The position numbers were made by a program, and so were the translations under genes. The notes beneath the pieces are model-generated. The model had not been told where the DNA came from, ran no database searches, and saw only the letters and a program-made list of their open reading frames with translations. A stretch of 64,000 bases of DNA from Escherichia phage vB_EcoM_H12. The stretch lies in sequence record PP952733.1; one strand, given 5' to 3'. Shown piece by piece: positions 4,175 through 64,000 of the stretch (positions within the stretch are counted from its first letter, which is position 1; each line of letters opens with the position of its first letter).

Positions 4175-9558
<5,384 letters not shown>

Positions 9559-9559
<1 letters not shown>

Positions 9560-11028
9560 TGGCAGGATTAACTACAACAGGATTACAAACTCTAAGATAT
9601 CAGGAGATTTTTGATAATATCAAATCAAGACTTCTTAGAGATATTTCACCCAATCTTGACGTTTCTGAAGATAGTCAATTAGGACTCTTCCTAGCTTCAA
9701 TTGCAAGGTCTTTAGCAGATACTCATGAGATTCTATCAGAAATCTACGATGGTGGGACAATTGATAAAGCTGAAGGTTTTAACCTTGACGACATTACAGC
9801 TTTGAACGCGGTGTATAGGTATGTTGCTCAGGCAACAAGAGGTCAGGTTGAGTTTACTGGAACAACTGGTGCTACCATTCCTTCAACAACAAGATTAAGA
9901 AGTACTGCCGGAAACATCTTTTATCCAGTTAATAACATTACCCTTACTCCATCATATTGTGTTGAAGCTATCCTTGAAGTTAACTCTTTACGAACTGATG
10001 CAGATTATGTTATTATTATTGATAACGTCATTTTCTCATATAAACCAACCTCATTAGACACAATCACCACGCTGCTAACAAAATTAGCAGAAGCTATTAA
10101 TGGTGGTATTGTAGCAAAAGCAGAAGTCATTAATGATGGAGCCGCACTAAGAGTCTATAAAGACGAGGGTGATATCATTGCAAGAACAAACCCTATGGTT
10201 GTCACTGCAACAACGTTTCTGACCTTTACAAAAATTACAACTATTTCAGATGTAGTAGCTGAAGAGGTTGGTGCTACCCCTGCTTTGGCTGGTACGCTTA
10301 TTGAGATTGAGACAACTGTTGATGGTCTTGACAGTATTTATAACAGGTATGATTTAACAACTGGTAGAAACGAAGAAACTGACACAGAACTTAGACAGAG
10401 ATATTTAGAATCTTTAGCAGTTACTGGTGTAGGGACTTTGGATGCAATTGTAGCTGCTGTTAAAAGAGTTCAAGGTGTCTCAGATGCTTCAGGTGTTGAA
10501 AATGATACTGAAGAGACAAGCTCAGAAGGTCTTCCACCAAAATCTTTTAAGATTGTTGTGGTTGGTGGTCAAAATGATAATGTTGCTCAAGCAATCTGGG
10601 ATACAAAACCTGCTGGTATTAGGGCTTATGGCTCAATTTTTGGTACAGCCCATGATTTAGGTGGTTTGGCACATAATATTTATTTTAGCAGACCAACACC
10701 AAAATACGCATTTGTTAAAGTCTCTTACTCTTTATATGATGAAGAAAGCTTGACAATCCCTGAAGAGGATATCAGAGACAGCATTGTACAAGGTATTAAT
10801 GCTTATGGAAGAACTCTTAAGGTTGGTAATGATGTTATCCCTAACAGAATCTATGGATATATCTATGACGTGATTAAAGGTATTGAGATTAATGAGGTTA
10901 AAGTAGCCTTATCAAACAGCCAATCAGTCCCACCTAGTGACGGGCAGTATACTACAGCAAGAATTACTGTTGACGGTGACCAATATACTGTTTGGGAAAG
11001 CAGCCAGTATACCATCACTAAGGAGTAA
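9559..11028 (+). CDS. baseplate J-like protein
   Basis: 489 aa; position and length typical of gpJ/gp6-family wedge subunits. Confidence 0.6.
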
Positions 11029-12189: not shown

Positions 12190-13365
12190 ATGGCAGTCGG
12201 TGAAATTCAAATTAGTGCCTTGCCACAAGCGGCATTACCTGTTGATTTAAGTGATATCTTCCATCTTAAGCAAGGTGTTGAGGATAAAAGATGTACGCTT
12301 GAACAGTTGTTAGCACCTCACGCATCTTTGAGGAATAATCCTCATGGTGTAACCAAATCGCAAGTGGGTCTTGATAATGTTATTAACTCTCTTCAATTAG
12401 TTGCAGCTAATAACTTGTCAGACATTGTGAATGTTGCTGAGGCAAGAGCAAATCTACAAATTATGTCGTCAGAGGAAGTGAATAACTTAATTCAGCAACA
12501 TATTGACGACAAAAGTAACCCACACAATACAACGAAAGCACAGGTCGGTTTAAGTAATGTTCAGAACTGGACAACATCTAATCTGTACAACGAAGATGCT
12601 GATAAGTACGCCACCGCGAGAGCAGTGAATAATTTATACAAAGCTATTCAAGCATCATATCCAGTAGGGACTATTCATCTATCTGTTAACTCTGCCAACC
12701 CATCCACTTACTTGCTTTGTGGAGGTACTTGGGAGTTAGTTTCTAAAGGTAGAGCACTAGTTGGTTACGATACAGATTCTAGACCTGTTGGTTCAATGTT
12801 TGGTTCTCAGACTGTAGCATTAACGAATAATAATTTACCAGCACACACACACTCTATCTATCTAACAGGTGGTGGTCATACACACTCTGCAAGTGTATCT
12901 ATCTCTAGTTTTGATTATGGTTCAAAGAGTACATCAACTTTTGACTACGGTACAAAAACGACTAATAGTGCTGGTGCTCATACTCACACGTTTAGTGGTA
13001 CAACAAGTAATGCTGGTAACCACAACCACAGAGTACCTATGAGGGGTAATGATAGGGGTGGTACAAATGCTATTACTGCATCTGCTGATGCTGGTGTTGG
13101 TAATGCTATGTATACTGATTTAGCTGGTGCTCACACCCATAGCTTCTCAGGCACAACTGCATCATCTGGTGCTCATAGCCATACTCTTGCAATTGGTGCT
13201 CACAGCCACACTGTTAATATTGGTTCACACAGTCATACGGGCACTGTTACTGTTTCTAGCTCTGAGCATACACACTCAGGGACATCTGGTTCTGTTGGTG
13301 GTGGTCAAGCTTTCAGTGTTGAGCAACCATCTTTTGTAGTATATGTGTGGCAGAGAACAGCTTAA
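12190..13365 (+). CDS. tail fibre protein (short paralogue)
   Basis: Repeated NPH..T..QVGL motifs; C-terminal Ser/Thr/Gly-rich HTHS/GAHSHT repeats; C-terminus shared with the 849 aa fibre. Confidence 0.75.
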   Translation: MAVGEIQISALPQAALPVDLSDIFHLKQGVEDKRCTLEQLLAPHASLRNNPHGVTKSQVGLDNVINSLQLVAANNLSDIVNVAEARANLQIMSSEEVNNLIQQHIDDKSNPHNTTKAQVGLSNVQNWTTSNLYNEDADKYATARAVNNLYKAIQASYPVGTIHLSVNSANPSTYLLCGGTWELVSKGRALVGYDTDSRPVGSMFGSQTVALTNNNLPAHTHSIYLTGGGHTHSASVSISSFDYGSKSTSTFDYGTKTTNSAGAHTHTFSGTTSNAGNHNHRVPMRGNDRGGTNAITASADAGVGNAMYTDLAGAHTHSFSGTTASSGAHSHTLAIGAHSHTVNIGSHSHTGTVTVSSSEHTHSGTSGSVGGGQAFSVEQPSFVVYVWQRTA

Positions 13366-13376
13366 TTTCTTTACAG

Positions 13377-13398
13377 GGGCTTTGTAGCCCCTTTTAAG
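13377..13398 (+). terminator. hairpin GGGGCT-TTGT-AGCCCC with short T-run (terminator or attenuator)
   Basis: Perfect 6 bp GC-rich stem; follows fibre gene; T-tract only 4 nt. Confidence 0.35.
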
Positions 13399-13411
13399 AG
13401 GAAAATTTATA

Positions 13412-15961
13412 ATGGCAGATTACAAATTGAGTCAATTAAACTCAATCGACACAATTCGTTCAGAAGACCTATTGCACATCAGAGTTAAGAAAAGACCTGA
13501 AATGTTGGGTGACGAAGACCGTAGAATGACCTATCAAGACTTCTTAGCTTCCTTCAAACTAGAAAGGTTTGTTCAGATTGCTGGGAGTACTATGGTTGGG
13601 GATTTAGGTATTGTCAAGTTACTTTACGGTGGTAAGGCAGTATTTGACCCAACAGGCTCTTCTGAGATTACTATTGGGGATATTTTAAAGTCTTTTAAAA
13701 TTAACTCAAATGGGCTTAAACTCACTATTGCAGATGCCACAAGGTCGGCAACTGTTTATCATACTTTGAATAAACCAAGCCCTAATGAACTTGGTATGAG
13801 AACTAATGAAGAGAATGATGCAAGATATGCAAGGCTTGCTGTTACAAACACATTCTCTGGGACTCAGAACATTCAAGGTGATGCTAACTTACTTCGCCTT
13901 AGAAACCGAAATGCAAACAATGCACAATACATTGAAGGTGTAAACCCAGATGGTTCAGCTAGATGGTGGGTTGGTATTGGTAGCAATGGTTCTGACGAAG
14001 TAAAACTGTACAATAACAAATACAACTCAGTCTTGACTGTTGCAAGTAATATCTCTGTTAATAAGTCTTTAGCAATCACTGGACAAGTCCAACCTTCAGA
14101 TTTCTCTAACTTAGATGCTAGATACTTTACTCAGACAGTTGCTAATCAGAGATTTGCACAGTTAGCTGGTAATAACACTTTTACAGGTGCTAACACATTT
14201 AGGACTATGAGTGTTATTTCAAATGCTGCTGCTATCACACTGCAATGTGCATCAGCAAACGAATCCCTGTATCTACTTGCAAAAGATTATGAAGGTGGAA
14301 ACTTATGGTATCTCGGTAAAGGTAGTTCAGGTGCTGGTGTAACTATCTACAACTATACCACTAACACCTCTTTGGTCTTAGATGCTGCTGGAGTATCAGC
14401 AAATAAAAATGTCAGAATCACTGGACAAGTTCAACCTTCAGATTGGGCTAACATTGACTCTAGATATATTCCGGCAGCAACATTAAGTACAATTGCAAGA
14501 ACTAATGCAAGGAATACTTTTAATGGTGTACAGACAGTTGTTACGGATAATGAAGGTCTGATTGTTAAAAACTCTACTCAGAATAGACCATTATATATTC
14601 GTGGTGTGGACACTACTAATGTATCAAGATGGTGGATTGGTGTTGGTGGTGCTGATACGAATGATGTTACCCTAAATAACAGTTATTCTGGAACCCAATT
14701 GGTTCTCGGAAATACAACATCATACATTAACAAAACATTGACTATTGCTGGACAAGTTCAACCTTCAGATTTTTCTAACTTAGATGCTAGATACTTTACG
14801 CAAAGTGCTAGTGATAGCAGATACCTAAGAATCAGAAGCACTAGCTTCAATGTGGGAAACACTGATAAGTGGGCTAAAATTGCCACTGTTGTGATGCCAC
14901 AATCAGCATCAACTGCTGTTATTGAGGTATTTGGTGGGTCAGGTTTTAATATTAATACACCACAACAAGCAGGTAAATGTGAAATTGTTCTGCGAACTTC
15001 AAATAACAATCCAAAGGGCTTAAATGTTGTTGCTTGGAGAACATCAGACAACACCATTGTCAGGGATATTGGTTATGTGAATACTTCTGGAGACACCTAT
15101 GATATTTACTATCTTGCTGGTACGTATCAAAACAGCACAACGACAAGGGTTCAGTCTTCTAGTAATGCAAGTGTACAGTTGTTTGAAGTCCCACAGACAT
15201 TTGATGATGCTCCACAAGGTATTGTGAAGGGTACAATTGCAAAATACTACACAAGTTTGCAAAAACCAACCCCTTCAGAAATTGGTGCATACACTAAAGC
15301 AGAGACTGACCAGAAGATTGCAGAAGCAATTAGTGACTCTACAGACCTGAATAAAATCTATCCAGTAGGTATTGTGACGTGGTTTAATAGTAATGTTAAC
15401 CCTAATACAGCACTTCCTGGTCTAACTTGGACGTACCTGAATAATGGTGTTGGCAGAACTATTAGAATTGCAGCAGCAAATGGTTCAGATGTTGCTACAA
15501 CTGGTGGTTCAGACTCTGTAACGTTATCTGTTGGTAACTTGCCTTCACACACGCATAGTTTCTCTGCTACTACTTCATCATTTGATTATGGTACTAAGAC
15601 TTCTAGTACAACTGGTAACCATAACCATAACAGAGGGACTATGGAGATTACTGGTACAGTAGGTTACTTTAGAAGTGACTCTAGCAGCTTCTACACAGCA
15701 AGTGGTGCATTTACACTTGGTAGCTCAACTGCTTCTAAAGGCTTTACTGGTTCTCACTTCACTTATGGTATCCCTGCTAACTTCAATGCGTCAAGAACTT
15801 GGTCTGGTGTAACTAACACAACTGGTAACCACAGCCACACTGTTGGTATTGGTGCTCACAGCCACACAGTTAGTGGTAACACAGGTGGTACTGGTTCTGG
15901 TTCAGCATTTAGTGTTACTAACCAGTTCTACAAGTTAATGGCTTGGGTGAGAACTGCTTAA
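13412..15961 (+). CDS. tail fibre protein (long paralogue)
   Basis: 849 aa; three internal ITGQVQPSD(F/W)(S/A)N(L/I)D(A/S)RY repeats; C-terminal HxH repeats and ...AFSV...W.RTA end like the 12190 gene. Confidence 0.8.
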   Translation: MADYKLSQLNSIDTIRSEDLLHIRVKKRPEMLGDEDRRMTYQDFLASFKLERFVQIAGSTMVGDLGIVKLLYGGKAVFDPTGSSEITIGDILKSFKINSNGLKLTIADATRSATVYHTLNKPSPNELGMRTNEENDARYARLAVTNTFSGTQNIQGDANLLRLRNRNANNAQYIEGVNPDGSARWWVGIGSNGSDEVKLYNNKYNSVLTVASNISVNKSLAITGQVQPSDFSNLDARYFTQTVANQRFAQLAGNNTFTGANTFRTMSVISNAAAITLQCASANESLYLLAKDYEGGNLWYLGKGSSGAGVTIYNYTTNTSLVLDAAGVSANKNVRITGQVQPSDWANIDSRYIPAATLSTIARTNARNTFNGVQTVVTDNEGLIVKNSTQNRPLYIRGVDTTNVSRWWIGVGGADTNDVTLNNSYSGTQLVLGNTTSYINKTLTIAGQVQPSDFSNLDARYFTQSASDSRYLRIRSTSFNVGNTDKWAKIATVVMPQSASTAVIEVFGGSGFNINTPQQAGKCEIVLRTSNNNPKGLNVVAWRTSDNTIVRDIGYVNTSGDTYDIYYLAGTYQNSTTTRVQSSSNASVQLFEVPQTFDDAPQGIVKGTIAKYYTSLQKPTPSEIGAYTKAETDQKIAEAISDSTDLNKIYPVGIVTWFNSNVNPNTALPGLTWTYLNNGVGRTIRIAAANGSDVATTGGSDSVTLSVGNLPSHTHSFSATTSSFDYGTKTSSTTGNHNHNRGTMEITGTVGYFRSDSSSFYTASGAFTLGSSTASKGFTGSHFTYGIPANFNASRTWSGVTNTTGNHSHTVGIGAHSHTVSGNTGGTGSGSAFSVTNQFYKLMAWVRTA

Positions 15962-46302: not shown

Positions 46303-46312
46303 AACTTTATAG

Positions 46313-46334
46313 GGGCTTTTAAGCCCCATTTTGA
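46313..46334 (+). terminator. hairpin between Prs-like and Nampt-like genes (attenuator candidate)
   Basis: GGGGCTT-TTA-AGCCCC then ATTTTG; weak U-tract. Confidence 0.3.
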
Positions 46335-51426: not shown

Positions 51427-51456
51427 TTGACAAGGGGCTTTGAAGCCCCTTAGAAT
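51427..51456 (+). promoter_or_regulatory. sigma70-like promoter with hairpin in the spacer
   Basis: TTGACA, 17-18 nt spacer that is itself GGGGCTTTGAAGCCCC, then TAGAAT. Confidence 0.5.
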
Positions 51457-51501
51457 AACCTCACAAAAATGATTTATTAACTAACAAGAGAGAGTAATAA
51501 G

Positions 51502-52711: not shown

Positions 52712-53260
52712 ATGAAGAAGTTGATTCTAGGTTTGTGCTTAATGTTTACAGCACACTTATCTTATGCAGTTGACTGCCCAGAGCTATCAATTAGCCAAAA
52801 AGTAAACATGTTAAAAGCTTACCAGTATGGTGAGAATAATATGGGTAAAGGTTGGGGTATCACTCTAGCTGCTATAGCCTTACAAGAGTCAGAGTTAGGT
52901 CTGAATGTAGAGAATAAAAAGACACATGACTATGGTATTTTCCAGAATCACTTGAAGACTGTTGTAAAGCGTAACAAAATTAGTCCTAATGTGGCTAAAA
53001 AGAAACTCTTAAAAGATTTTGACTATGCCGCAAAAGAAACACACAAAGAGCTTGAGTTTTGGACGAAGGTACATGGTCAACCAAAGTCAAAGAAGACTTT
53101 ACAAAAAGTTTTAGCGTCATATAATGCTGGGTATTCGTACAAAATCCCTAAAGCTAAGAAATACTCTCAAGATGTCTACAACAATATGAAAGTTATTGCT
53201 CAATGTGAATTTGCAACAAACATTTCTAAGGTAAACCATGAAAAAATTAAGAAAGTCTGA
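52712..53260 (+). CDS. secreted lytic transglycosylase (candidate endolysin)
   Basis: Sec-type signal peptide (cleavage near SYA/VD); AIALQESELG resembles the catalytic Glu-Ser motif of SLT-type transglycosylases. Confidence 0.6.
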   Translation: MKKLILGLCLMFTAHLSYAVDCPELSISQKVNMLKAYQYGENNMGKGWGITLAAIALQESELGLNVENKKTHDYGIFQNHLKTVVKRNKISPNVAKKKLLKDFDYAAKETHKELEFWTKVHGQPKSKKTLQKVLASYNAGYSYKIPKAKKYSQDVYNNMKVIAQCEFATNISKVNHEKIKKV

Positions 53261-56260: not shown

Positions 56261-57046
56261 ATGGGTATTGTAAAAATCATCAATGGGGATATCTTCTCAG
56301 CATTTGATAAAGGTAAGTTTGATGTTATTGGTCACGGTTGCAACTGTATGAATTTAATGGGTGCAGGTATCGCTGACAAGATTTCTAAACTTTATCCAAA
56401 AGCATATGAGACCGATACAGAAGTTTATCTGTATGCAGGTGGAATAGGCCACAAACCTTGTGAAAATTTACTAGGGAATTTCTCTGTAGCACGTTTAGAA
56501 CAAGGCCGTATAGCTAACCTTTACACTCAGCTTAAGACTGGTAAAGATGCCCGATACAGTGCTTTAGAGTCATCTTTGAAACAACTTAACAGATACTGTG
56601 AAGTCAATCAGTTGAAGAAAGTTGGGTTACCTATGATTGGTGCAGGTATCGGTGGACTAGACCCTCAAGCCGTCGCAGTTATCATTAATCAGGTGATGAA
56701 GAGTGTAGATGTGTATCTGTATGTCTACGAAGGCGAGATGTACCACAAGTTACGCTCAGGTTGGAAGAACTACTGTGAACCAGAATACTTTGCAGGTGTA
56801 GTAATGTTCACAGATGATACAGTTACCCTCTTCAGACGAAGAAAAGGTAAGATACATCAAAGTAACCCTCCGGTTGAGAAGATGTCTCTAAGTAACGCTC
56901 TAGTTACCCACCTGTCGAAGAGCAATCACAGAATTGCAGTAACATTTGGCAGTGATGCAGACGCTTACATCTATGCAAGAACTGATGAGGATATTGATAC
57001 AGTTTTCTCTTCACCGGAAGTAACCTTCTTAGACGCAAAGAACTAA
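56261..57046 (+). CDS. macro-domain protein (ADP-ribose binding / processing)
   Basis: N-terminal GDI ... DVIGHGCNCMNLMGAGIADKI and later VGLPMIGAGIGGLDPQAV align with macro-domain motifs (compare E. coli YmdB, as recalled). Confidence 0.7.
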   Translation: MGIVKIINGDIFSAFDKGKFDVIGHGCNCMNLMGAGIADKISKLYPKAYETDTEVYLYAGGIGHKPCENLLGNFSVARLEQGRIANLYTQLKTGKDARYSALESSLKQLNRYCEVNQLKKVGLPMIGAGIGGLDPQAVAVIINQVMKSVDVYLYVYEGEMYHKLRSGWKNYCEPEYFAGVVMFTDDTVTLFRRRKGKIHQSNPPVEKMSLSNALVTHLSKSNHRIAVTFGSDADAYIYARTDEDIDTVFSSPEVTFLDAKN

Positions 57047-57109: not shown

Positions 57110-57302
57110 GAGGGCTTTTTCATTTTAGGATTGTGCAGGTAGAGTTCTGTATAGAAATCTGTAGAGAAAATTTTGAACTCCAAAGAGAAAATTCATTTTC
57201 AAACTGTGCAGGTAATCTCCAAAGAGCTTTTTCATTTTCAAAACGTGCAGACCCCGCTCAGGTCGGGCAAGAAAAATCATTTTAGAATTGTGCAGGTAGG
57301 TG
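57110..57302. repeat. degenerate direct repeats (4 copies) in ~500 bp non-coding region
   Basis: Four copies of (A/T)TCATTTT(A/C)(A/G)(A/G)A(A/C/T)(T/C)GTGCAG(G/A)(T/C), two preceded by CTCCAAAGAG. Confidence 0.55.
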
Positions 57303-57473
57303 GGTACAGGTGGGGATGTCGCCATTTCTCACAAGGCTACCACATCTGGAAATAAAAGTCAACATAAAAATTTGTAGAGGATTGAAAAATAATTCTTGAT
57401 TGTAGTTCTGTTTTGTGGTAGTCGCGTGCGCCCGTTTCATTACAGTTTTTGCAAAAATATTTTTAAAAATTTT

Positions 57474-57502
57474 CTTGACTCTTTGAACGTGGTTATCTAA
57501 TA
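57474..57502 (+). promoter_or_regulatory. sigma70-like promoter, first unit of small-gene array
   Basis: TTGACT-N17-TAATAT. Confidence 0.55.
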
Positions 57503-57555
57503 TTTGCATCAGACGGGGCGACAAGCTCAACAACCTTAAACTAGGAGATTCAAAA

Positions 57556-57936
57556 ATGGCATATCGTGCACCTAAATTCATCAACAAAGACAACTTTCGC
57601 AACACACTGGAGAAGTCACTTGATGAAAATTTTAAAGGTAACATTATCGTTGTTCACGCATTCAATTTTAAGTATGATGTAAACGGGAATAGAATCAACC
57701 ATTACACGGCAACCATGTTAGATGGTACGCTATCAAGTGAAAAAGCTGTACTGAATGCACTTGCTGGACGCGGTAAAAACCTGATAAAATGTGATAAGAG
57801 ACGTTATCAGGGTGGCGCATATGGTTATGATGATGCTGTTTACCATCTTGAAAATATGGGCTATTCAGTAGAGAAAGCTGGAGCGTCTCAAATAATCGGT
57901 AGTGATGGTTATGTGACAATTTTCAAAATTAACTGA
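57556..57936 (+). CDS. small-gene array: hypothetical protein
   Basis: 126 aa; conserved leader CTAGGAGATTCAAAAATG. Confidence 0.45.
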   Translation: MAYRAPKFINKDNFRNTLEKSLDENFKGNIIVVHAFNFKYDVNGNRINHYTATMLDGTLSSEKAVLNALAGRGKNLIKCDKRRYQGGAYGYDDAVYHLENMGYSVEKAGASQIIGSDGYVTIFKIN

Positions 57937-57940
57937 TAAA

Positions 57941-58024
57941 GTACTTTACAAGGGGCTTATAGTTCGATAAAGTAAGCCCCAGATAAAGAGCTTTATCACT
58001 CAATCCTAAATTGGAGATTCTAAG
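57941..58024 (+). repeat. type-1 intergenic element (hairpin + conserved box + leader)
   Basis: ACTTTACA, hairpin GGGGCTTA/TAAGCCCC (57952-57980), AGATAAAGAGCTTTATCAC box. Confidence 0.55.
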
Positions 58025-58318
58025 ATGGCTATTATCAAAAACGTTGTAATTACTGCAAAAACTCGTGATGATGCTCGCGTTATGGCTAAAAAGTTATGCG
58101 GGAAAGTGATTGACAACGGAAAACAATCTGCTGTAAGATGGGGCGTGAAGACTGATAAACAGTTGAAGCTAAAAAATTCACCAATAAACCTTTTTACATG
58201 TGTAAACACTATCGGGAAGACAAATGTATACACGAAAAAGGCATATATCAGACGCGTAGCCATGACATCACCTATTCGCACAATGAGAAGTCATGCAAAG
58301 CTGAAAATTAATCGTTAA
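58025..58318 (+). CDS. small-gene array: basic hypothetical protein
   Basis: 97 aa; conserved leader. Confidence 0.45.
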   Translation: MAIIKNVVITAKTRDDARVMAKKLCGKVIDNGKQSAVRWGVKTDKQLKLKNSPINLFTCVNTIGKTNVYTKKAYIRRVAMTSPIRTMRSHAKLKINR

Positions 58319-58320
58319 AG

Positions 58321-58404
58321 TACTTTACAGGGGCTTGAAAGCTGATATCTTAAACCCCAGATAAAGAGCTTTACCACTCAATCCTTAAACTAGGAGATTC
58401 AAAA
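58321..58404 (+). repeat. type-1 intergenic element
   Basis: ACTTTACA, imperfect hairpin with AAGCTGATA loop, AGATAAAGAGCTTTACCAC box. Confidence 0.5.
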
Positions 58405-58917
58405 ATGAAAACTGTAGACGCTACCTTTGAAGTTGTAAAAGAAAAATTCACCATTATTTATGAAGCTGTTAATTGCTTTGAAGCAAGCCATAACCTTGAT
58501 AATTGGGAGTTTACAGATGACCATCAAGGCGGCGTGACTATTAAAAACCCCAACTGTCAGCGTAATGATTTTAAATATGCAATCCCTTTACATTACAGCC
58601 TTAAACAGCTTTCAAGTGACTATGCAAAACAAGGCCGGGAAAATCCATCAAAAGAGGCTTACATAAGCTTACAGAAAGAACTAGAAAGAGATTTAGAGGC
58701 TTCAGAATACAACCTTGCCGCGAAAGTTGTCGATGCAAATGGTCAAACAATTTTAGATAGTTTTTATATTGGTTACGCTTTCGATTGGTGCTATAGTGAC
58801 GGCGATGATTTAGAGGATAGACTAAAAGAAGAGGTGAGCAATTCAGACGCAGAATCTGAAGTATTAGAACGCTTGGAAGCATTAAAAGATTCAGTGATGA
58901 ATATCTTTAAGAACTAA
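58405..58917 (+). CDS. small-gene array: acidic hypothetical protein
   Basis: 170 aa; conserved leader. Confidence 0.45.
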   Translation: MKTVDATFEVVKEKFTIIYEAVNCFEASHNLDNWEFTDDHQGGVTIKNPNCQRNDFKYAIPLHYSLKQLSSDYAKQGRENPSKEAYISLQKELERDLEASEYNLAAKVVDANGQTILDSFYIGYAFDWCYSDGDDLEDRLKEEVSNSDAESEVLERLEALKDSVMNIFKN

Positions 58918-58920
58918 ATA

Positions 58921-59004
58921 GATTTCTTTACACGGGGCTATCAAGCTGATAAGATAGCCCCAGATAAAGAGATTTATCAACTATCCTAAACTGGAGATTC
59001 AAAA
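58921..59004 (+). repeat. type-1 intergenic element
   Basis: CTTTACA, hairpin GGGGCTATC/GATAGCCCC with AAGCTGATA loop, AGATAAAGAG box. Confidence 0.55.
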
Positions 59005-59301
59005 ATGAAATTATCAAATAAAGTCCGTGAAAATCTAAGCAAGTTACTCAACAAAATTGATTTTATCGAGACATCAAGGAATAGTCATGATGTTATGGAA
59101 TGGTTACACGGAAAAATCAAAGGCCGTCGTGTAGTGATTTGCTTATGGAATAGTTGCAGGGAATATAAAAAACCTGTATTACAAGTCAATATCTATGATG
59201 ATACTTTTAAAAGCCCTGTAAAGTCTAAAAGTGATTTATTAGAATCCTATGAGATAACTGTAAATGGCAAAGTATCACGTAAAGAGGAAACACCATGTTA
59301 A
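59005..59301 (+). CDS. small-gene array: hypothetical protein
   Basis: 98 aa; conserved leader. Confidence 0.45.
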   Translation: MKLSNKVRENLSKLLNKIDFIETSRNSHDVMEWLHGKIKGRRVVICLWNSCREYKKPVLQVNIYDDTFKSPVKSKSDLLESYEITVNGKVSRKEETPC

Positions 59302-59627
59302 TGACTGGTATCACTGCAATCATTGCCATTTTCGCGCTATATAAGGCATATAAAGCCTATAATCTAGCAAATAAGGCAATCACACAGCAGGTTAGCAATA
59401 GCCTTGTAGAAAGCTTTCTAGGGCGTCTCAGTGATGAGCAAATAAAGCGGTTAGAAATGAGCTTCAGATTCAAAGCGAAAACCTATCAGATAAGTGACAT
59501 CTTCAAGGATGATTTTCAGCTTGTCGATGATTATAACTCTCTGATAAATGCTTTAAATATCAGTGATTTAAAAGATTATCATGCTGTAATAGTTCAAGAA
59601 TTGAGCAAACGAAAAAATTCCTCTTGA
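59295..59627 (+). CDS. small-gene array: membrane-anchored hypothetical protein
   Basis: 110 aa; N-terminal TM helix; coupled to upstream gene. Confidence 0.4.
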   Translation: MLMTGITAIIAIFALYKAYKAYNLANKAITQQVSNSLVESFLGRLSDEQIKRLEMSFRFKAKTYQISDIFKDDFQLVDDYNSLINALNISDLKDYHAVIVQELSKRKNSS

Positions 59628-59652
59628 TTTTGGTTTTTAAAACAAGTAAATT
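59624..59652 (+). promoter_or_regulatory. type-2 promoter
   Basis: TTGATT-N17-TAAATT; then 5' hairpin GGGAGG-GATAA-CCTCCC (59663-59679). Confidence 0.55.
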
Positions 59653-59714
59653 ACTAATCAACGGGAGGGATAACCTCCCTACTAAGTAAAGTCCTTAAAC
59701 TAGGAGATTCAAAA

Positions 59715-59987
59715 ATGTACACTACTAACAACGGTCGCACTTTAAACGTAACCCTGCGCCACTATGTGAACGGTGTAATGCACTTCGAGGATTTACAAGC
59801 TGAACAACATATACTAGATTGGCAACTTGCAGGACTCCAAAAAACTGCTACCGGATACGGGAAAAAGATTCCAACTAGCTGGAAAGTATACTACGAAGGA
59901 CGTTTGCGCAGAATTTATCAAGATGTATGCAGCAATAGCGCATCAAGTTACATCATGGTAAAGGGTAAAAAATTACACTTAGCATAA
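59715..59987 (+). CDS. small-gene array: hypothetical protein
   Basis: 90 aa; conserved leader. Confidence 0.45.
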   Translation: MYTTNNGRTLNVTLRHYVNGVMHFEDLQAEQHILDWQLAGLQKTATGYGKKIPTSWKVYYEGRLRRIYQDVCSNSASSYIMVKGKKLHLA

Positions 59988-60072
59988 AGTACTTTACAAG
60001 GGGCTTATAGTTCGATAAAGTAAGCCCCAGATAAAGAGCTTTATCACTCAATCCTAAATTGGAGATTCTAAA
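59988..60072 (+). repeat. type-1 intergenic element (near-identical to 57941-58024)
   Basis: Same ACTTTACA-hairpin-AGATAAAGAG sequence. Confidence 0.55.
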
Positions 60073-60477
60073 ATGGCTATTAATAATCGTGAGTTATCAA
60101 TCTTAAAAGCACGTTTGACCGTTAACCGGATTAATGTTATTACGTCATCAGCACCGGATGAGACATTGCACAACATTATCGGGAAGATTCAAAGTGTTAT
60201 CTTAGACGTTGAAAACGTAAAAAATTCATTAGCTGACGTTGCAGCAGGTATCACGCTAGACGGTGCACAATATGAAATGGCTGACATGTTAGGCAAATCT
60301 AAGGTAATGAATAAAGAGCTTGATTTAAAAATGTTCCGCTTTGCCGTGAAAGTGTGGCTATCTGTCGAGTATGACGCAAATTTTGCAATCGCTGACTTTT
60401 TCGCAACATGGTTGCAACGTAATTTAACAAATCATGATTTCCGTGATATCTGCGACGTAATTTACGCAGAACTTTAA
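60073..60477 (+). CDS. small-gene array: hypothetical protein
   Basis: 134 aa; conserved leader. Confidence 0.45.
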   Translation: MAINNRELSILKARLTVNRINVITSSAPDETLHNIIGKIQSVILDVENVKNSLADVAAGITLDGAQYEMADMLGKSKVMNKELDLKMFRFAVKVWLSVEYDANFAIADFFATWLQRNLTNHDFRDICDVIYAEL

Positions 60478-60487
60478 AAATTTCTCT

Positions 60488-60516
60488 TGATTTTGGTTTT
60501 TAAAACAAGTAAATTA
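60488..60516 (+). promoter_or_regulatory. type-2 promoter
   Basis: TTGATT-N17-TAAATT plus GGGAGG/CCTCCC 5' hairpin; near-identical to 59611-59714. Confidence 0.55.
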
Positions 60517-60577
60517 CTAATCAACGGGAGGGATAACCTCCCTACTAAGTAAAGTCCTTAAACTAGGAGATTCAAAA

Positions 60578-60778
60578 ATGGCTATTATTAACGGCTTAAA
60601 CATTGAAACTACTCACATCAAAGATATCAAAGTTGGTGATATAGTCCTTTTTCACGGCGTAGAAAAAACTGTTACTTCAAAGGATATCAAAGAGGACTCT
60701 TTCATGGGCCGGTCTCTCTTCGGTGATTCTTATTGCTTAGGTTACCGCGCAGTTTTAAAAGTTGTCAAAAATAACTGA
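60578..60778 (+). CDS. small-gene array: hypothetical protein
   Basis: 66 aa; conserved leader. Confidence 0.4.
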   Translation: MAIINGLNIETTHIKDIKVGDIVLFHGVEKTVTSKDIKEDSFMGRSLFGDSYCLGYRAVLKVVKNN

Positions 60779-60780
60779 TA

Positions 60781-60866
60781 AAGTACTTTACAGGGGGCTT
60801 AAAAGCTGATATCTTAAGCCCCAGATAAAGAGCTTTACCACATTAATCCTAAACTGGAGATTCAAA
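60781..60866 (+). repeat. type-1 intergenic element
   Basis: ACTTTACA, hairpin GGGGCTTAA/TTAAGCCCC with AAGCTGATA loop, AGATAAAGAG box. Confidence 0.55.
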
Positions 60867-61409
60867 ATGAAATGCTTTCACGGTACTACTCAAGAAAACT
60901 TCGTCAACCTGATTAATAACGGTGATAAACCATCAGGCGCATGGAATTGTTCTGATATGGATGGGAATTTCTACGTTTATCCAGAAAATAAAATCTATGT
61001 CGACGATGAGGAAGAAATAATCTCTGAAGGCATTCAACAAGCTTTAGGCAATGCCACTATAACGGCAGCTTTTCAGATGAAAACTCAAAACATTGTTATC
61101 TTGGAACTTGATATCCCAGAGGATGAGTTGAATGATGATTATTCTTGTGATAATATGTCGAGCGTGGCAAGTTTTACAGAGTATTTCGATATAAGCTGGA
61201 TTAAAAAGGTTTATATCACTGAATTTAATGCTATGTTTTCACCTTTTTGTCTTCCTTCACTGGATAACCCGAACTTAAACTATCTTGATGAGTCTCTGGA
61301 ACTTCTCGCTAAAAGTGTTCAACAATCAGACAGTATTCAGGTTTTTTGTGACATCATGGATACACTAACAGGAAACATCATAGAAAGTGATTTGAAGAGC
61401 TTTTTATAA
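60867..61409 (+). CDS. small-gene array: acidic hypothetical protein
   Basis: 180 aa; conserved leader variant. Confidence 0.45.
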   Translation: MKCFHGTTQENFVNLINNGDKPSGAWNCSDMDGNFYVYPENKIYVDDEEEIISEGIQQALGNATITAAFQMKTQNIVILELDIPEDELNDDYSCDNMSSVASFTEYFDISWIKKVYITEFNAMFSPFCLPSLDNPNLNYLDESLELLAKSVQQSDSIQVFCDIMDTLTGNIIESDLKSFL

Positions 61410-61441
61410 AAACCTATGCAATCACCCTATAAACACTGATT

Positions 61442-61462
61442 AGCCCCTCACAGGGGCTTTTA
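61442..61462 (+). terminator. probable intrinsic terminator
   Basis: AGCCCC-TCACA-GGGGCT then TTTT. Confidence 0.45.
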
Positions 61463-61475
61463 GGAGGCTTTAATC

Positions 61476-61709
61476 ATGCTTACAACCATTTACCTCATCC
61501 TTTCTATTTGTAATGGTCATTCATGCGATTTTAAAGGGCTTGAGGAGTTTACAGGGAGTAAAGAAAATGCTATTCAAGTTTGCCAGATAGCAAGACAAGA
61601 CTACCCCGCCAGTGATGATATACAATGCTACTTCAAAACAGAAGATAATGACGGCGTTTATTTTGATAGTGTCGATGGTCAATATGAAATTATCATTGAA
61701 AAAGACTAG
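61476..61709 (+). CDS. small-gene array: hypothetical protein (possible signal peptide)
   Basis: 77 aa; hydrophobic N-terminus; AGGAGG RBS. Confidence 0.4.
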   Translation: MLTTIYLILSICNGHSCDFKGLEEFTGSKENAIQVCQIARQDYPASDDIQCYFKTEDNDGVYFDSVDGQYEIIIEKD

Positions 61710-61735
61710 ACAAGCCTGATAAAAGTCTGTAAATT
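61707..61735 (+). promoter_or_regulatory. type-2 promoter
   Basis: TAGACA-N17-TAAATT then GGGGAGGGAATGACCTTCCCC hairpin. Confidence 0.5.
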
Positions 61736-61800
61736 ACTAATCAACGGGGAGGGAATGACCTTCCCCACTAAATAAAGTCCTTAAACTAGGAGATTCAAAA

Positions 61801-62142
61801 ATGGCTTATGTAACCGTAATTACCGACAAGGCTGGCTCATCTTGGTCAACTCAAGTAAGCGATAAGATGACACCTATGCAGTGCCTAAAATACTTTGAGC
61901 AGTGGAATAAAGGCGAGGATGTCAGCCCCTTTCAAGTCATGCAGATTATCCATACAGATAACGAAGGGAATAAAACTGTTTTGAATAGTGAGTACTACGC
62001 AACCCGATTTGAAACGAGATGTAAAGCAATGAAGCTCTTGCGTGAGTCTGGCTATTCTCATATTGCCTCACTAATCTGGGATGACCTTCTAAAAAATCAG
62101 CGTATCAGCTATGTAAAACCTGAAAAAATATTCATCAGTTAA
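61801..62142 (+). CDS. small-gene array: hypothetical protein
   Basis: 113 aa; conserved leader. Confidence 0.45.
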   Translation: MAYVTVITDKAGSSWSTQVSDKMTPMQCLKYFEQWNKGEDVSPFQVMQIIHTDNEGNKTVLNSEYYATRFETRCKAMKLLRESGYSHIASLIWDDLLKNQRISYVKPEKIFIS

Positions 62143-62270
62143 TCAATAACTTACAAAAAACTTTTAAAAAAGTGTTGACAATACCCCTTGACATTGGTAA
62201 CTTTGTTCGAGGGGGTTTATCTAAAAGGATTCACTTAAAAGATTCTTTATAGATAAACTTAAAAAATTGC

Positions 62271-62299
62271 TTGCAAAGACAAATCAAATCAAGTAAATT
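62271..62299 (+). promoter_or_regulatory. type-2 promoter
   Basis: TTGCAA-N17-TAAATT then GGGGGA-TGACC-TCCCCC hairpin. Confidence 0.55.
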
Positions 62300-62360
62300 A
62301 CTAATCAACGGGGGATGACCTCCCCCACTAAATAAAGTCCTTAAACTAGGAGATTCTAAA

Positions 62361-62891
62361 ATGAACAAGTTTAAAGCTATCAATTACATCCGCTCAAATA
62401 GTGTTATGTCAAAACCTGTTAAAGATACCTACGAATTTCGTTGCAATGGTGTACACTTTGCAACAATCACCAAATCAGAAAACGGAGCTTATTACATTCA
62501 TCGCCGTAATGTTGCAACCGTTGTTGTCTCTCACTTTATGCAAGCTGTCGCGGAACTTCTCCCGATGTTTTTAGGGCTTTACTTGGATGAGTGTAAAAAC
62601 GTTCACAATCACGTTAAAAACCTTTTAAATAGCTATAAAATGGCTTATGAACGTTCTATCAAGTCATTGAACAAGTTTTACAACGCACCTGAAAATACTG
62701 TATCAATAGCTTATGACGTAAGCGGTGAAATGGTAAACTTATCCAATGTGGAAGAAATCAAGCTGCATGATTTACGCCCTAGCGGTGACTCTAAGACTCT
62801 CGGTGAAGGTTTAACGTTCAATATCAAGAACTTAGAGAAAACTTTAAAAGATATTGAAAAAGATATTGACGAGACAACCAAAAATCTGTAA
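62361..62891 (+). CDS. small-gene array: hypothetical protein
   Basis: 176 aa; conserved leader. Confidence 0.45.
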   Translation: MNKFKAINYIRSNSVMSKPVKDTYEFRCNGVHFATITKSENGAYYIHRRNVATVVVSHFMQAVAELLPMFLGLYLDECKNVHNHVKNLLNSYKMAYERSIKSLNKFYNAPENTVSIAYDVSGEMVNLSNVEEIKLHDLRPSGDSKTLGEGLTFNIKNLEKTLKDIEKDIDETTKNL

Positions 62892-62894
62892 ATT
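62866..62894 (+). promoter_or_regulatory. type-2 promoter (inside the 3' end of the upstream gene)
   Basis: TTGACG-N17-TAAATT then GGGGAGGGAATGACCTTCCC hairpin. Confidence 0.5.
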
Positions 62895-62956
62895 GTCAAT
62901 CAACGGGGAGGGAATGACCTTCCCACTAAGTAAAGTCCTAAACTGGAGTTATCAAG

Positions 62957-63220
62957 ATGGAAAACGTAGAATTAACCGCACTATTGCAGATTGCAACTGA
63001 TAAAGAGGATGTAGCACTGTTCCACCGCATTGAAAGCGATTTGTTCAATGGTGAAATCATCAAAGAGTCTTACGAAGTTGTCGGATTCAAAGACGGTAAA
63101 ACGTTCGGATTCTTTGACCTTGATAAAGGCAACGCGGTTACAAAATATGATGTTTTATCTTGTGAGATTCTTACAAGATACAACGAAAAAAGGCTTGCAA
63201 CATACGCCAACATGCAGTAA
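62957..63220 (+). CDS. small-gene array: hypothetical protein
   Basis: 87 aa; leader variant. Confidence 0.4.
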   Translation: MENVELTALLQIATDKEDVALFHRIESDLFNGEIIKESYEVVGFKDGKTFGFFDLDKGNAVTKYDVLSCEILTRYNEKRLATYANMQ

Positions 63221-63223
63221 ATT
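63195..63223 (+). promoter_or_regulatory. type-2 promoter (inside the 3' end of the upstream gene)
   Basis: TTGCAA-N17-TAAATT then GGGGGA-TGACC-TCCCCC hairpin. Confidence 0.55.
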
Positions 63224-63284
63224 ACTAATCAACGGGGGATGACCTCCCCCACTAAATAAAGTCCTTAAACTAGGAGATTCAAAA

Positions 63285-63533
63285 ATGGCAACTATCCGCG
63301 CAATTGTAAATTCTTATGGCTGCTACACTCTGGACGTTAAATTTGATATTGGTGGAACTGATGAATGCTTTTCATTAGTGAAGACAGTTATCAAGCAAGT
63401 TATCCCAGACTATAACCCTACTGATGACTTCTGGAAAGATGCCGTAAAAGAGGCGTTGAACGATGAATATCATTACCATTATTGGGGTGACTTGATTGTA
63501 TCCCTGTACTACAGCAAACAAGGTTACAACTAA
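63285..63533 (+). CDS. small-gene array: hypothetical protein
   Basis: 82 aa; conserved leader. Confidence 0.45.
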   Translation: MATIRAIVNSYGCYTLDVKFDIGGTDECFSLVKTVIKQVIPDYNPTDDFWKDAVKEALNDEYHYHYWGDLIVSLYYSKQGYN

Positions 63534-63571
63534 TCGACGCAACGGGGCTAAATAGCCCCAGATACCTTTAC

Positions 63572-63595
63572 AGCCCCTTAAATGGGGCTTTTTTA
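63572..63595 (+). terminator. intrinsic terminator closing the small-gene array
   Basis: AGCCCC-TTAAAT-GGGGCT then TTTTTT; extra hairpin GGGGCTAAATAGCCCC just upstream. Confidence 0.55.
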
Positions 63596-63599
63596 CGTC

Positions 63600-64000
63600 T
63601 ATGTAATAGACCCTACACAATCCTTTCCAGAATCTATCTCGTACCTTAAAAGCAATAACTCTATAGCTTACTCTATAGCCCCTTATCAAATCAACTTAAA
63701 TATAAGCCAATAACCCCAGAAAGGGGATGGCCCATTTAAACGCTCTATAAAGCTCTATAACAGCCTTATCAACCTAACTTAATGGATTGCATTAACTCAC
63801 CCTTAAAAGCTCTTTACAGGGCTTTATAGAGGCTTAAAAGAATCTTATAAGGGTGTAAGCTTTATCATCTCGTTAGTTATCTTGTGAATGGTTAAACAAC
63901 CCCTTGATAGTCACTAAAAAGTATGTTATAGGGGCTATAAAGTCACTTTGAAGTAGCTTAAAAGTTACGTAAAAGGTGTTTAAAAGTTACGTAAATGCTA
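63600..64000. repeat. non-coding region with short direct repeats (continues beyond window)
   Basis: Repeated CTCTATA(A)AGC units; TTAAAAGTTACGTAAA twice at 63958-64000; no ORF over 60 aa. Confidence 0.4.

Follow-up and report, generated by a model that had tools for sequence, protein, structure and literature searches.

Repeated intergenic elements of a Felix O1-like phage as probable promoter/stem-loop cassettes between small early genes

Described promoter/stem-loop systems and the vB_EcoM_H12 elements

Promoter-early stem-loops (PeSLs) are intergenic cassettes of the T4-like phages RB49 and phi1, found also in PST, nt-1 and KVP40 (Arbiol et al. 2010, PMC2839356; Comeau et al. 2014, PMC4122927). 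They run from an upstream stop codon in an AT-rich stretch through a sigma-70-like promoter to a 3' Shine-Dalgarno sequence and start codon, with a G/C stem-loop placed most often between the -35 and -10 hexamers or over the -10 (PMC2839356, PMC4122927). PeSLs lie among ORFans in hyperplastic regions and join in indels, and their promoter and terminator activity in reporters and their minicircles are all experimental findings (PMC2839356, PMC4122927). The subject of the present analysis is a family of five repeated elements, designated family 2, located between small genes in 64,000 nt of Escherichia phage vB_EcoM_H12 (PP952733.1; one strand), a stretch referred to throughout as the window, with the study area at approximately 57.9-60.9 kb. 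Each element is considered, with a probability of roughly 0.6, to be a composite PeSL-type promoter/stem-loop cassette of a Felix O1-like phage, flanked by two small early genes read in the same direction.

The likeness to PeSLs extends to layout and genomic setting. Both are repeated intergenic cassettes of approximately 100 bp clustered among small ORFans, both combine an AT-rich upstream stop, a sigma-70-like promoter, a G/C stem-loop at or between the -35 and -10 and a 3' Shine-Dalgarno sequence with start codon, and both coincide with the junctions at which close relatives differ by an insertion, deletion or replacement. They differ in phage subfamily and in the extent of the palindrome, which in the Felix O1-like element reaches past the stem-loop such that the -35 region is predicted to pair with the first transcribed bases, giving approximately 20 bp in all. 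A blastn search with the element (word size 11, 50,697 phage records) listed only Ounavirinae and revealed no sequence homology to the PeSLs of RB49/phi1; the 275 records retrieved have genomes of approximately 85-98 kb, the named genera being Felixounavirus, Mooglevirus, Suspvirus and Kolesnikvirus. Given this lack of sequence similarity, the element is regarded as an analogue of PeSLs and not as a homologue. No literature linking PeSLs or promoter-stem-loop cassettes to Felix O1-like phages was found in the library searched. The element itself corresponds to a 57-bp 'direct repeat', CTTTACATGGGGCTTAAAAGTCTGTAAAGTAAGCCCCAGATAAAGAGCTTTACCACT, reported between genes 15/16 and 19/20 of Felix O1 (Whichard et al. 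2010, PMC3185647). In that paper it is treated as a repeat only, being absent from the promoter list and with no hairpin or recombination role mentioned (PMC3185647).

Promoter-coupled terminators resemble the family-2 elements in lying between tandem genes and in using the same DNA for an upstream RNA stem-loop and a downstream promoter. In these, the stem-loop coincides with the -35, a T-tract stands just before the -10 and termination occurs approximately 10 bp ahead of the start (Fletcher et al. 2026, bioRxiv 10.64898/2026.08.19.745784), whereas the Felix O1-like stem spans the spacer and discriminator, holds the -10 in its loop and has no T-tract. Membership of this class was rejected on the basis of that geometry and the missing T-tract. 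A weak terminator can become more efficient when an active promoter overlaps it (bioRxiv 10.64898/2026.08.19.745784), which offers a possible route by which a hairpin lacking a U-tract could limit read-through. The RNase III sites of the T7 early region (R1.1 type; Pertzev and Nicholson 2006, PMC1540722) resemble the predicted fold in being hairpins between cistrons that span about two helical turns and contain an internal loop, and cleavage of the Felix O1-like hairpin would, by prediction, similarly leave a 3' stem-loop on the upstream message. The T7 sites differ in not being promoters, and the lower helices of the Felix O1-like hairpin have little covariation support.

Conserved promoter-like signals and a covarying hairpin

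Window positions 57500-61500 share 90-95% identity with approximately 140 Felix O1-like myoviruses (Felixounavirus, Ounavirinae), and the source of the window is, judged by sequence, such a myovirus. A covariance model made from eight relatives was searched across the 64 kb on both strands and returned exactly five copies, all on the + strand and within a cluster of small open reading frames (ORFs), with scores of 62-94 bits (Table 1). These are the five copies located in a preliminary description of the window. No further family-2 copies above 20 bits were present in the 64 kb, bar weaker reverse-strand echoes of the same five palindromes, and no Rfam match was obtained in 57300-64000 up to E = 1. 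The five copies sit within 3 kb, among small genes of unknown function. The motif CTTTACANGGGGCT, with at most two mismatches, gave 15 matches against 0.87 expected, a number reached in 0/100 shuffles, and a second flanking motif, CCCCAGATAAAGAG, was exact at all five copies (6 matches against 0.31 expected; 0/100 shuffles). A motif search in related phages, which the preliminary description had proposed, found the element kept across four Ounavirinae genera with its stem pairing conserved.

The position of the element relative to genes is similarly constrained. From the stop codon of the upstream co-directional ORF (at least 40 codons) to the inner hairpin the distance was 11-19 nt, mostly 12 or 15, in 146/148 distinct contexts, in keeping with the figure of about 15 nt first reported. 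The hairpin therefore always stands at the 3' end of a co-directional message. A GGAG-linked start codon followed 33-50 nt past the start of the GATAAAG box in 133 of the 148 contexts.

Promoter counts were made on 135 distinct copies from IMG/VR and GenBank records of the four genera, the GenBank set comprising Mooglevirus Mordin, Suspvirus SUSP1, Kolesnikvirus phiEa21-4, SPARTY, phi63_307 and SeKF_13, and Felixounavirus. All five window copies passed a sigma-70 scan as TTTACA followed after 16/17 nt by TAAAGT, TATCTT or TAAGAT, with TG one base ahead of the hexamer in three. TTTACA was invariant in the distinct copies, TAnnnT lay 16-18 nt past it in 134/135 and at exactly 17 nt in 126, and G occupied position -14 in 123. 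Thirteen different -10 hexamers were present, among which alignment showed T1 and A2 to be invariant and T6 to be kept in 134/135, with positions 3-5 among the most variable columns. In elements that are 1 nt shorter the base is lost downstream of the -10 and the spacer remains 17. When copies were retrieved by the hairpin only, CTTTACA still stood in front of every family-2 (GATAAAG-box) copy, and in Erwinia phage phiEa21-4 an identical hairpin is preceded by TTTACA at one place and by TTGCAA at others.

The loop AAGCTGATA (..TGnTA..), which is common to copies 2, 3 and 5 as the preliminary description held, is best read as the extended -10 of a sigma-70 promoter, and counting from the -10 places the predicted transcription start at the A of AGATAAAGAG. 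Hairpin promoters of the N4-type virion RNA polymerase combine a phage-encoded RNA polymerase with a 5-7 bp stem and a 3-nt loop. Such a promoter was rejected given the loop of 9-13 nt found here, and the phage-specific promoter first put forward gave way to a host one, since TTTACA-17-TA...T with G at -14 is the host sigma-70 signature and the genome of Felix O1 lacks an RNA polymerase gene (PMC3185647). Recognition of a specific loop sequence, also put forward, did not hold up either: the loop of Felix O1 is AAAGTCTGTAAAG (PMC3185647), 13 hexamers fill the -10 position and only TA...T is invariant. In Felix O1, ORFs 16 and 20 belong to the reverse transcription PCR class maximally expressed at 5 min (PMC3185647). 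Both lie directly downstream of its two 57-bp repeats, and this early expression is counted in favour of the promoter.

In a transcript read through from the upstream gene, the same sequence is predicted to form a three-tier hairpin totalling approximately 20 bp. The upstream half of the spacer, together with the last base(s) of the -10 and the discriminator, supplies the stem, which runs from -34 to about +1. The inner tier, GGGGCUUAN / NUAAGCCCC, consists of 9 bp with a G/C clamp and closes a loop of 9-13 nt that contains the -10. A 3x3 internal loop (CAN / AGA) separates it from the middle tier of 5 bp (CUUUA / UAAAG), in which the -35 region pairs with +4..+8, that is, with the AGATAAAG box, and a 1x1 mismatch leads to the outer tier of 5-6 bp (AUAAAGU / GCUUUAU). 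In the modelled fold the ACTTTACA and AGATAAAGAG boxes are the two predicted strands of one further helix. Fold energies are -25 to -31 kcal/mol in four copies (z -3.8 to -5.8); z in copy 2 is -1.45. A transcript begun at the element's own promoter would hold only the 3' strands of the two lower helices. A 5'-terminal hairpin, GAUAAAG/CUUUAUC, in promoter-initiated mRNA was predicted weakly and for copy 3 only, and is not relied on.

Covariation was counted on 119 distinct model-aligned sequences. Because MAFFT gapped the 3' arm, the upper inner-stem pairs were counted on the model-fitted alignment, which is biased in favour of the structure; for the lower pairs the two alignments concur. The covariation score was 0.179, compared with 0.070 +/- 0.004 in column shuffles, of which 0/500 reached the observed value, and with 0.02-0.05 in slid registers. 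Pair 26:52 was G-C in 109 sequences and U-A in 9, the latter being the Kolesnikvirus GGUG...CACC stem, pair 30:48 was U-A in 96 and A-U in 23, pair 31:47 was A-U in 93 and U-A in 20, and pair 32:46 took five pair types. The outer pair 13:66 was G-C in 96, U-A in 14 and unpaired in 6, with agreement from the MAFFT alignment. The alternative stems GGGGCTATC/GATAGCCCC and GGGGCTTAA/TTAAGCCCC were as first described. Where a conserved loop on a covarying stem had been proposed, the stem is real, conserved and covarying, but the loop sequence is not conserved across relatives.

Cells with G.U numbered 203 against 10 with A.C (100 against 9 when the nearly fixed U.G pair is left out). This excess indicates that pairing is maintained on the sense strand and points to RNA and not to duplex DNA or a cruciform. 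An antisense-strand structure or DNA cruciform is disfavoured by the same counts and by reverse-strand model scores approximately 30-50 bits lower. The statement that the copies lack a U-tract and are not standard intrinsic terminators was sustained by a terminator scan, which called 0/5 copies; a canonical intrinsic terminator was rejected on this result together with the 3' flank AGAUAAAGAG and the loop of 9-13 nt.

The pattern of conservation indicates that the elements are clearly real, conserved across the phage subfamily and functional. From it we infer promoter activity, a start site and a role for the hairpin in read-through transcripts, either attenuating them or stabilising their 3' ends, as opposed to RNase III processing. 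As a PeSL-type cassette the element would act at three levels. In DNA, a host sigma-70 promoter made up of the -35 TTTACA, a 17-bp spacer, an extended -10 (TGn)TAnnnT and a G+C-rich discriminator would start transcription at the A of AGATAAAGAG and drive the gene approximately 45 nt downstream via the conserved leader and Shine-Dalgarno sequence. In RNA, read-through transcripts from the upstream gene would fold the same sequence into the hairpin, the structure of which is indicated by covariation and which most likely keeps adjacent transcription units apart by attenuating or stopping read-through, the upstream mRNA retaining a protective 3' stem-loop. In the genome, comparison shows the approximately 100-bp repeats, together with a second set of cassettes termed family 1, to supply the homology for inserting, deleting and swapping ORFan genes. 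As far as was found, there is no earlier description of a promoter in which the -35 and the first transcribed bases are selected to pair in RNA.

Felix O1-like phages are widely used in Salmonella/E. coli typing, biocontrol and therapy, and the genome paper states temporal transcription control in Felix O1 to be unknown (PMC3185647). The cassettes would provide a concrete, testable map of early transcription units. With them the PeSL principle, known from T4-like phages, would also apply in an unrelated subfamily of myoviruses, and the analogy suggests that portable promoter/stem-loop modules arose by convergent evolution. A compact element of approximately 75 bp could also serve as a promoter-plus-insulator part.

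Several points weigh against the PeSL-type reading. Sites that match the promoter consensus are common in DNA this rich in AT (35, where shuffles predict 20), and the promoter argument therefore rests on the comparison of relatives; no transcript data for Ounavirinae phages were found. The -35 hexamer and the TAAAG box never vary, such that the middle helix shows no covariation and is neither backed nor contradicted, and their invariance could stem from promoter function, pairing or protein binding. The outer helix leans mainly on one compensated pair, which may represent one or two events spread by gene conversion, and conservation is lacking for the three outermost of the pairs predicted in copy 1. 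Since the copies evolve in concert, the number of distinct sequences exaggerates their independence. Finally, with no U-tract and a large loop, the hairpin would be a poor intrinsic terminator alone.

Alternative readings of the hairpin and its flanking boxes

The hairpin might instead serve chiefly for processing by host RNase III, in the manner of the early R sites of T7, with the cut in or beside the 3x3 loop. The inner hairpin would then be left as a 3' cap upstream, and the downstream mRNA would start near AGAUAAAG with the same leader as that from the embedded promoter. Substrates of E. coli RNase III typically comprise two helical turns, coaxially stacked short helices can serve, and internal loops limit the enzyme to one-strand cuts that leave 3' hairpins protective against exonucleases (PMC1540722). 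These published features fit the three-tier fold, the predicted helices of which (9 + 5 + 5-6, approximately 20 bp) are stacked over the 3x3 loop and the 1x1 mismatch. Sense-strand specificity and a place right after the stop codon suit an inter-cistronic processing signal, and processing would account for selection on outer helices that a simple attenuator does not need. However, beyond the inner helix the outer helix offers just one covarying pair and the middle helix is invariant, and the family-1 cassettes of the same cluster have a hairpin of 6-8 bp, too short for the enzyme, so that processing is not the general rule there. A role mainly in processing is considered unlikely on this evidence.

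Promoter and hairpin could also form one integrated device, in which RNase III or another double-strand-specific nuclease cuts at the internal loop and read-through and promoter transcripts acquire the same AGAUAAAG... 5' leader. This combination is advanced tentatively, as something with a small chance of being correct. If true, each early gene would be expressed as a uniform monocistronic mRNA whichever promoter was used, and the upstream message would retain its protective 3' hairpin.

A third reading places the function in duplex DNA, with the two TAAAGNNCTTTA palindromes that flank the core promoter (centres approximately -40 and +8), or the long inverted repeat in cruciform form, acting as operators. 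A dimeric protein of phage or host, or supercoiling, would work through them to turn the early promoters off or on. All 8 exact occurrences of TAAAGNNCTTTA in the 64 kb fall within family-2 elements, two in each, and allowing one mismatch raises the count to 30, where 5.3 are expected; the promoter lies between the boxes, which are invariant across genera. Where box variants do arise (G->T upstream with C->A downstream) they break both palindromes and keep the pairing of box 1 with box 4 (14/17 sequences). An excess of 203 G.U over 10 A.C would mean nothing in duplex DNA, and in a cruciform the opposite strand would be left with C.A mismatches. A central loop of 9-13 nt and internal mismatches also disfavour cruciform extrusion, no candidate regulator was identified, and operators of this kind appear improbable.

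The last reading, a pure RNA hairpin with no promoter, its loop read by a sequence-specific factor and the downstream genes reached by read-through only, draws on the RNA-level selection of the hairpin, on some invariant loop bases and on the frequency of chance promoter matches in AT-rich DNA, but is very improbable given that the invariant unpaired bases are exactly the sigma-70 ones (ACA of the -35, G -14, T -12 and A -11) with other loop positions varying, that the distance to TTTACA is held at 17, that TTTACA and TTGCAA are exchanged ahead of the same hairpin and that the loop AAGCTGATA is missing from Felix O1 and from copies 1 and 4.

Cassettes at recombination junctions and in the surrounding cluster

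Window positions 57.3-64.0 kb were compared with twelve related loci, and junctions were counted from seven close relatives. Of the 17 synteny junctions, 16 fell in cassettes (11/12 distinct events), which make up approximately 16% of the region. Overlap at the junctions was usually 20-100 nt, as expected for homologous exchange, and several indel junctions fell inside the leader shared by both cassette families. In one relative (L028) a single family-2 element takes the place of elements 1 and 2 together with the gene at 58025-58318, in another (L046) one element links a different upstream gene to the gene at 59005, and a third (L024) has an additional gene between two family-2 elements. The stretch 60.58-61.73 kb is absent from a fourth (L007), with the junction within a family-1 cassette. 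Copies 1 and 4 are 99% identical over 99 nt (57936-58034 and 59984-60082), including the leader and the first four codons, which suggests recent gene conversion or cassette duplication ahead of two otherwise different genes. Recombination at repeated cassettes explains why the accessory-gene cluster varies among otherwise near-identical phages.

The cluster comprises a run of small ORFs on the + strand at 57.5-63.6 kb, in which nearly every gene or gene pair has a cassette of one of the two families in front. Both families finish with the same leader, CCT(T)AAAYTRGGAGATTC(A/T)AAAATG. A Pfam scan covered 10 proteins, namely 7 small cluster ORFs and 3 larger neighbour genes, and none of the 7 cassette-flanked cluster ORFs matched a family. 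The coordinates of the family-2 elements, their parts and the leaders are collected in Table 1.

Table 1. Window coordinates of the family-2 copies, their predicted parts and the shared leader
Feature	Position	Strand	Covariance-model score (bits)	Predicted fold	-35	-10	Inner hairpin	Box	Downstream ATG	Remarks
Copy 1	57930..58005	+	94.2	-29.9 kcal/mol, z -4.4	TTTACA 57945-57950	TAAAGT 57968-57973; spacer 17	57952-57980	AGATAAAGAG 57981-57990	58025	predicted start A 57981
Copy 2	58309..58383	+	71.3	weak, z -1.45	58324-58329	TGn + TATCTT 58346-58351; 16-nt spacer	58330-58358, with C.A mismatch	58359-58368	58405	degraded
Copy 3	58912..58986	+	62	-30.7 kcal/mol, z -5.8; 13-bp lower stem	58927-58932	TGn + TAAGAT 58950-58955	GGGGCTATC/GATAGCCCC 58934-58961	58962-58971	59005	outer helix a compensated variant (ATAGATTTC ... 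GAGATTTAT), pair 13:66 = U-A
Copy 4	59978..60053	+	82.7		59993-59998	TAAAGT 60016-60021	60000-60028	60029-60038	60073	repeat family D2
Copy 5	60772..60847	+	88.8	-25.6 kcal/mol, z -3.8	60787-60792	TGn + TATCTT 60810-60815	GGGGCTTAA/TTAAGCCCC 60794-60822	60823-60832	60867	
Shared leader/ribosome-binding site CCTTAAACTAGGAGATTCAAAAATG	57534..57558	+								repeat family D3; closes every cassette of both families
Leader CCTTAAACTAGGAGATTCAAAAATG, other starts	58383, 59693, 60556, 61779, 62339, 63263									repeat family D3
Leader variant CCTAAAYTGGAGATTC	58006, 58986, 60054, 60849									

Family-1 cassettes were located at 57475-57558, 59613-59717, 60476-60580, 61707-61803, 62270-62363, 62866-62959 and 63190-63287. 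Their layout is a TTGNNN-17-TAAATT promoter-like site, approximately 10 nt, a G/C hairpin of 6-8 bp in the 5' untranslated region (GGGAGG..CCTCCC and variants) and the family-2 leader, and they were likewise found at indel junctions. The early cluster is closed by two adjacent hairpins at 63544-63600, the second of which (AGCCCCTTAAATGGGGCT then TTTTTT) is a canonical terminator and the equivalent of Felix O1 t23. Past this terminator, at 63803-63839, lies a degenerate element-like sequence, AAAAGCTCTTTACAGGGCTTTATAGAGGCTTAAAA, with 65% identity to the 5' part of family 2 and only a weak reverse-strand match to the covariance model.

Directly upstream of the cassette cluster a macro-domain (ADP-ribose-binding) protein is encoded at 56261-57046 (Pfam E = 5.8e-8). 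The action of a RegB-type nuclease on the conserved GGAG leaders was considered and dropped, the candidate ORF at 52712-53260 giving only a sub-threshold Pfam match to SLT (lytic transglycosylase); its homologue in Citrobacter phage Mordin is annotated 'similar to T4 endoribonuclease RegB'.

At 6127-6271 of the Mordin locus (L052), one complete family-2 element follows another in tandem without an intervening gene, possibly the footprint of an excised gene cassette. The Mordin record annotates only a 14-nt 'repeat_region' ahead of each ribosome-binding site. A third cassette family is present in Kolesnikvirus, at 7650-7720, 10137-10216 and 10542-10615 of the phiEa21-4 locus (L053), with the order TTGCAA or TTTACA, GGGGTTATggttatgaGATTATAACCCC, then GTCGAAAC in place of the AGATAAAG box; its -10, GATTAT with TG, lies inside the hairpin (GGGGTTATggttatgaGATTATAACCCC). 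In the same locus the cluster is followed at 12759-13948 by approximately 1.2 kb of non-coding sequence dense in short repeats (ttctaa, gttaaca, ttgacaa), the window counterpart of which lies at or past the window 3' end.

The preliminary description had also noted the GGGGCT/AGCCCC stem elsewhere in the window. Such stems do exist at 13376, 46312, 51434, 61442 and 63544, but lie outside this family: with 6-bp stems, loops of 4-5 nt and no covariance-model match they were rejected as family-2 members, and are short hairpins between large ORFs or ordinary terminators. Three of them are GGGGCT-NNNN-AGCCCC hairpins between large + strand ORFs, at 13369-13397, 46305-46333 and 51428-51460, with the -35-like hexamers CTTTACA, CTTTATA and TTGACA, respectively, directly before the hairpin. 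At 51428 the hairpin takes up the spacer of a TTGACA-18-TAGAAT pair, and this promoter-around-hairpin layout thus occurs also outside the early cluster.

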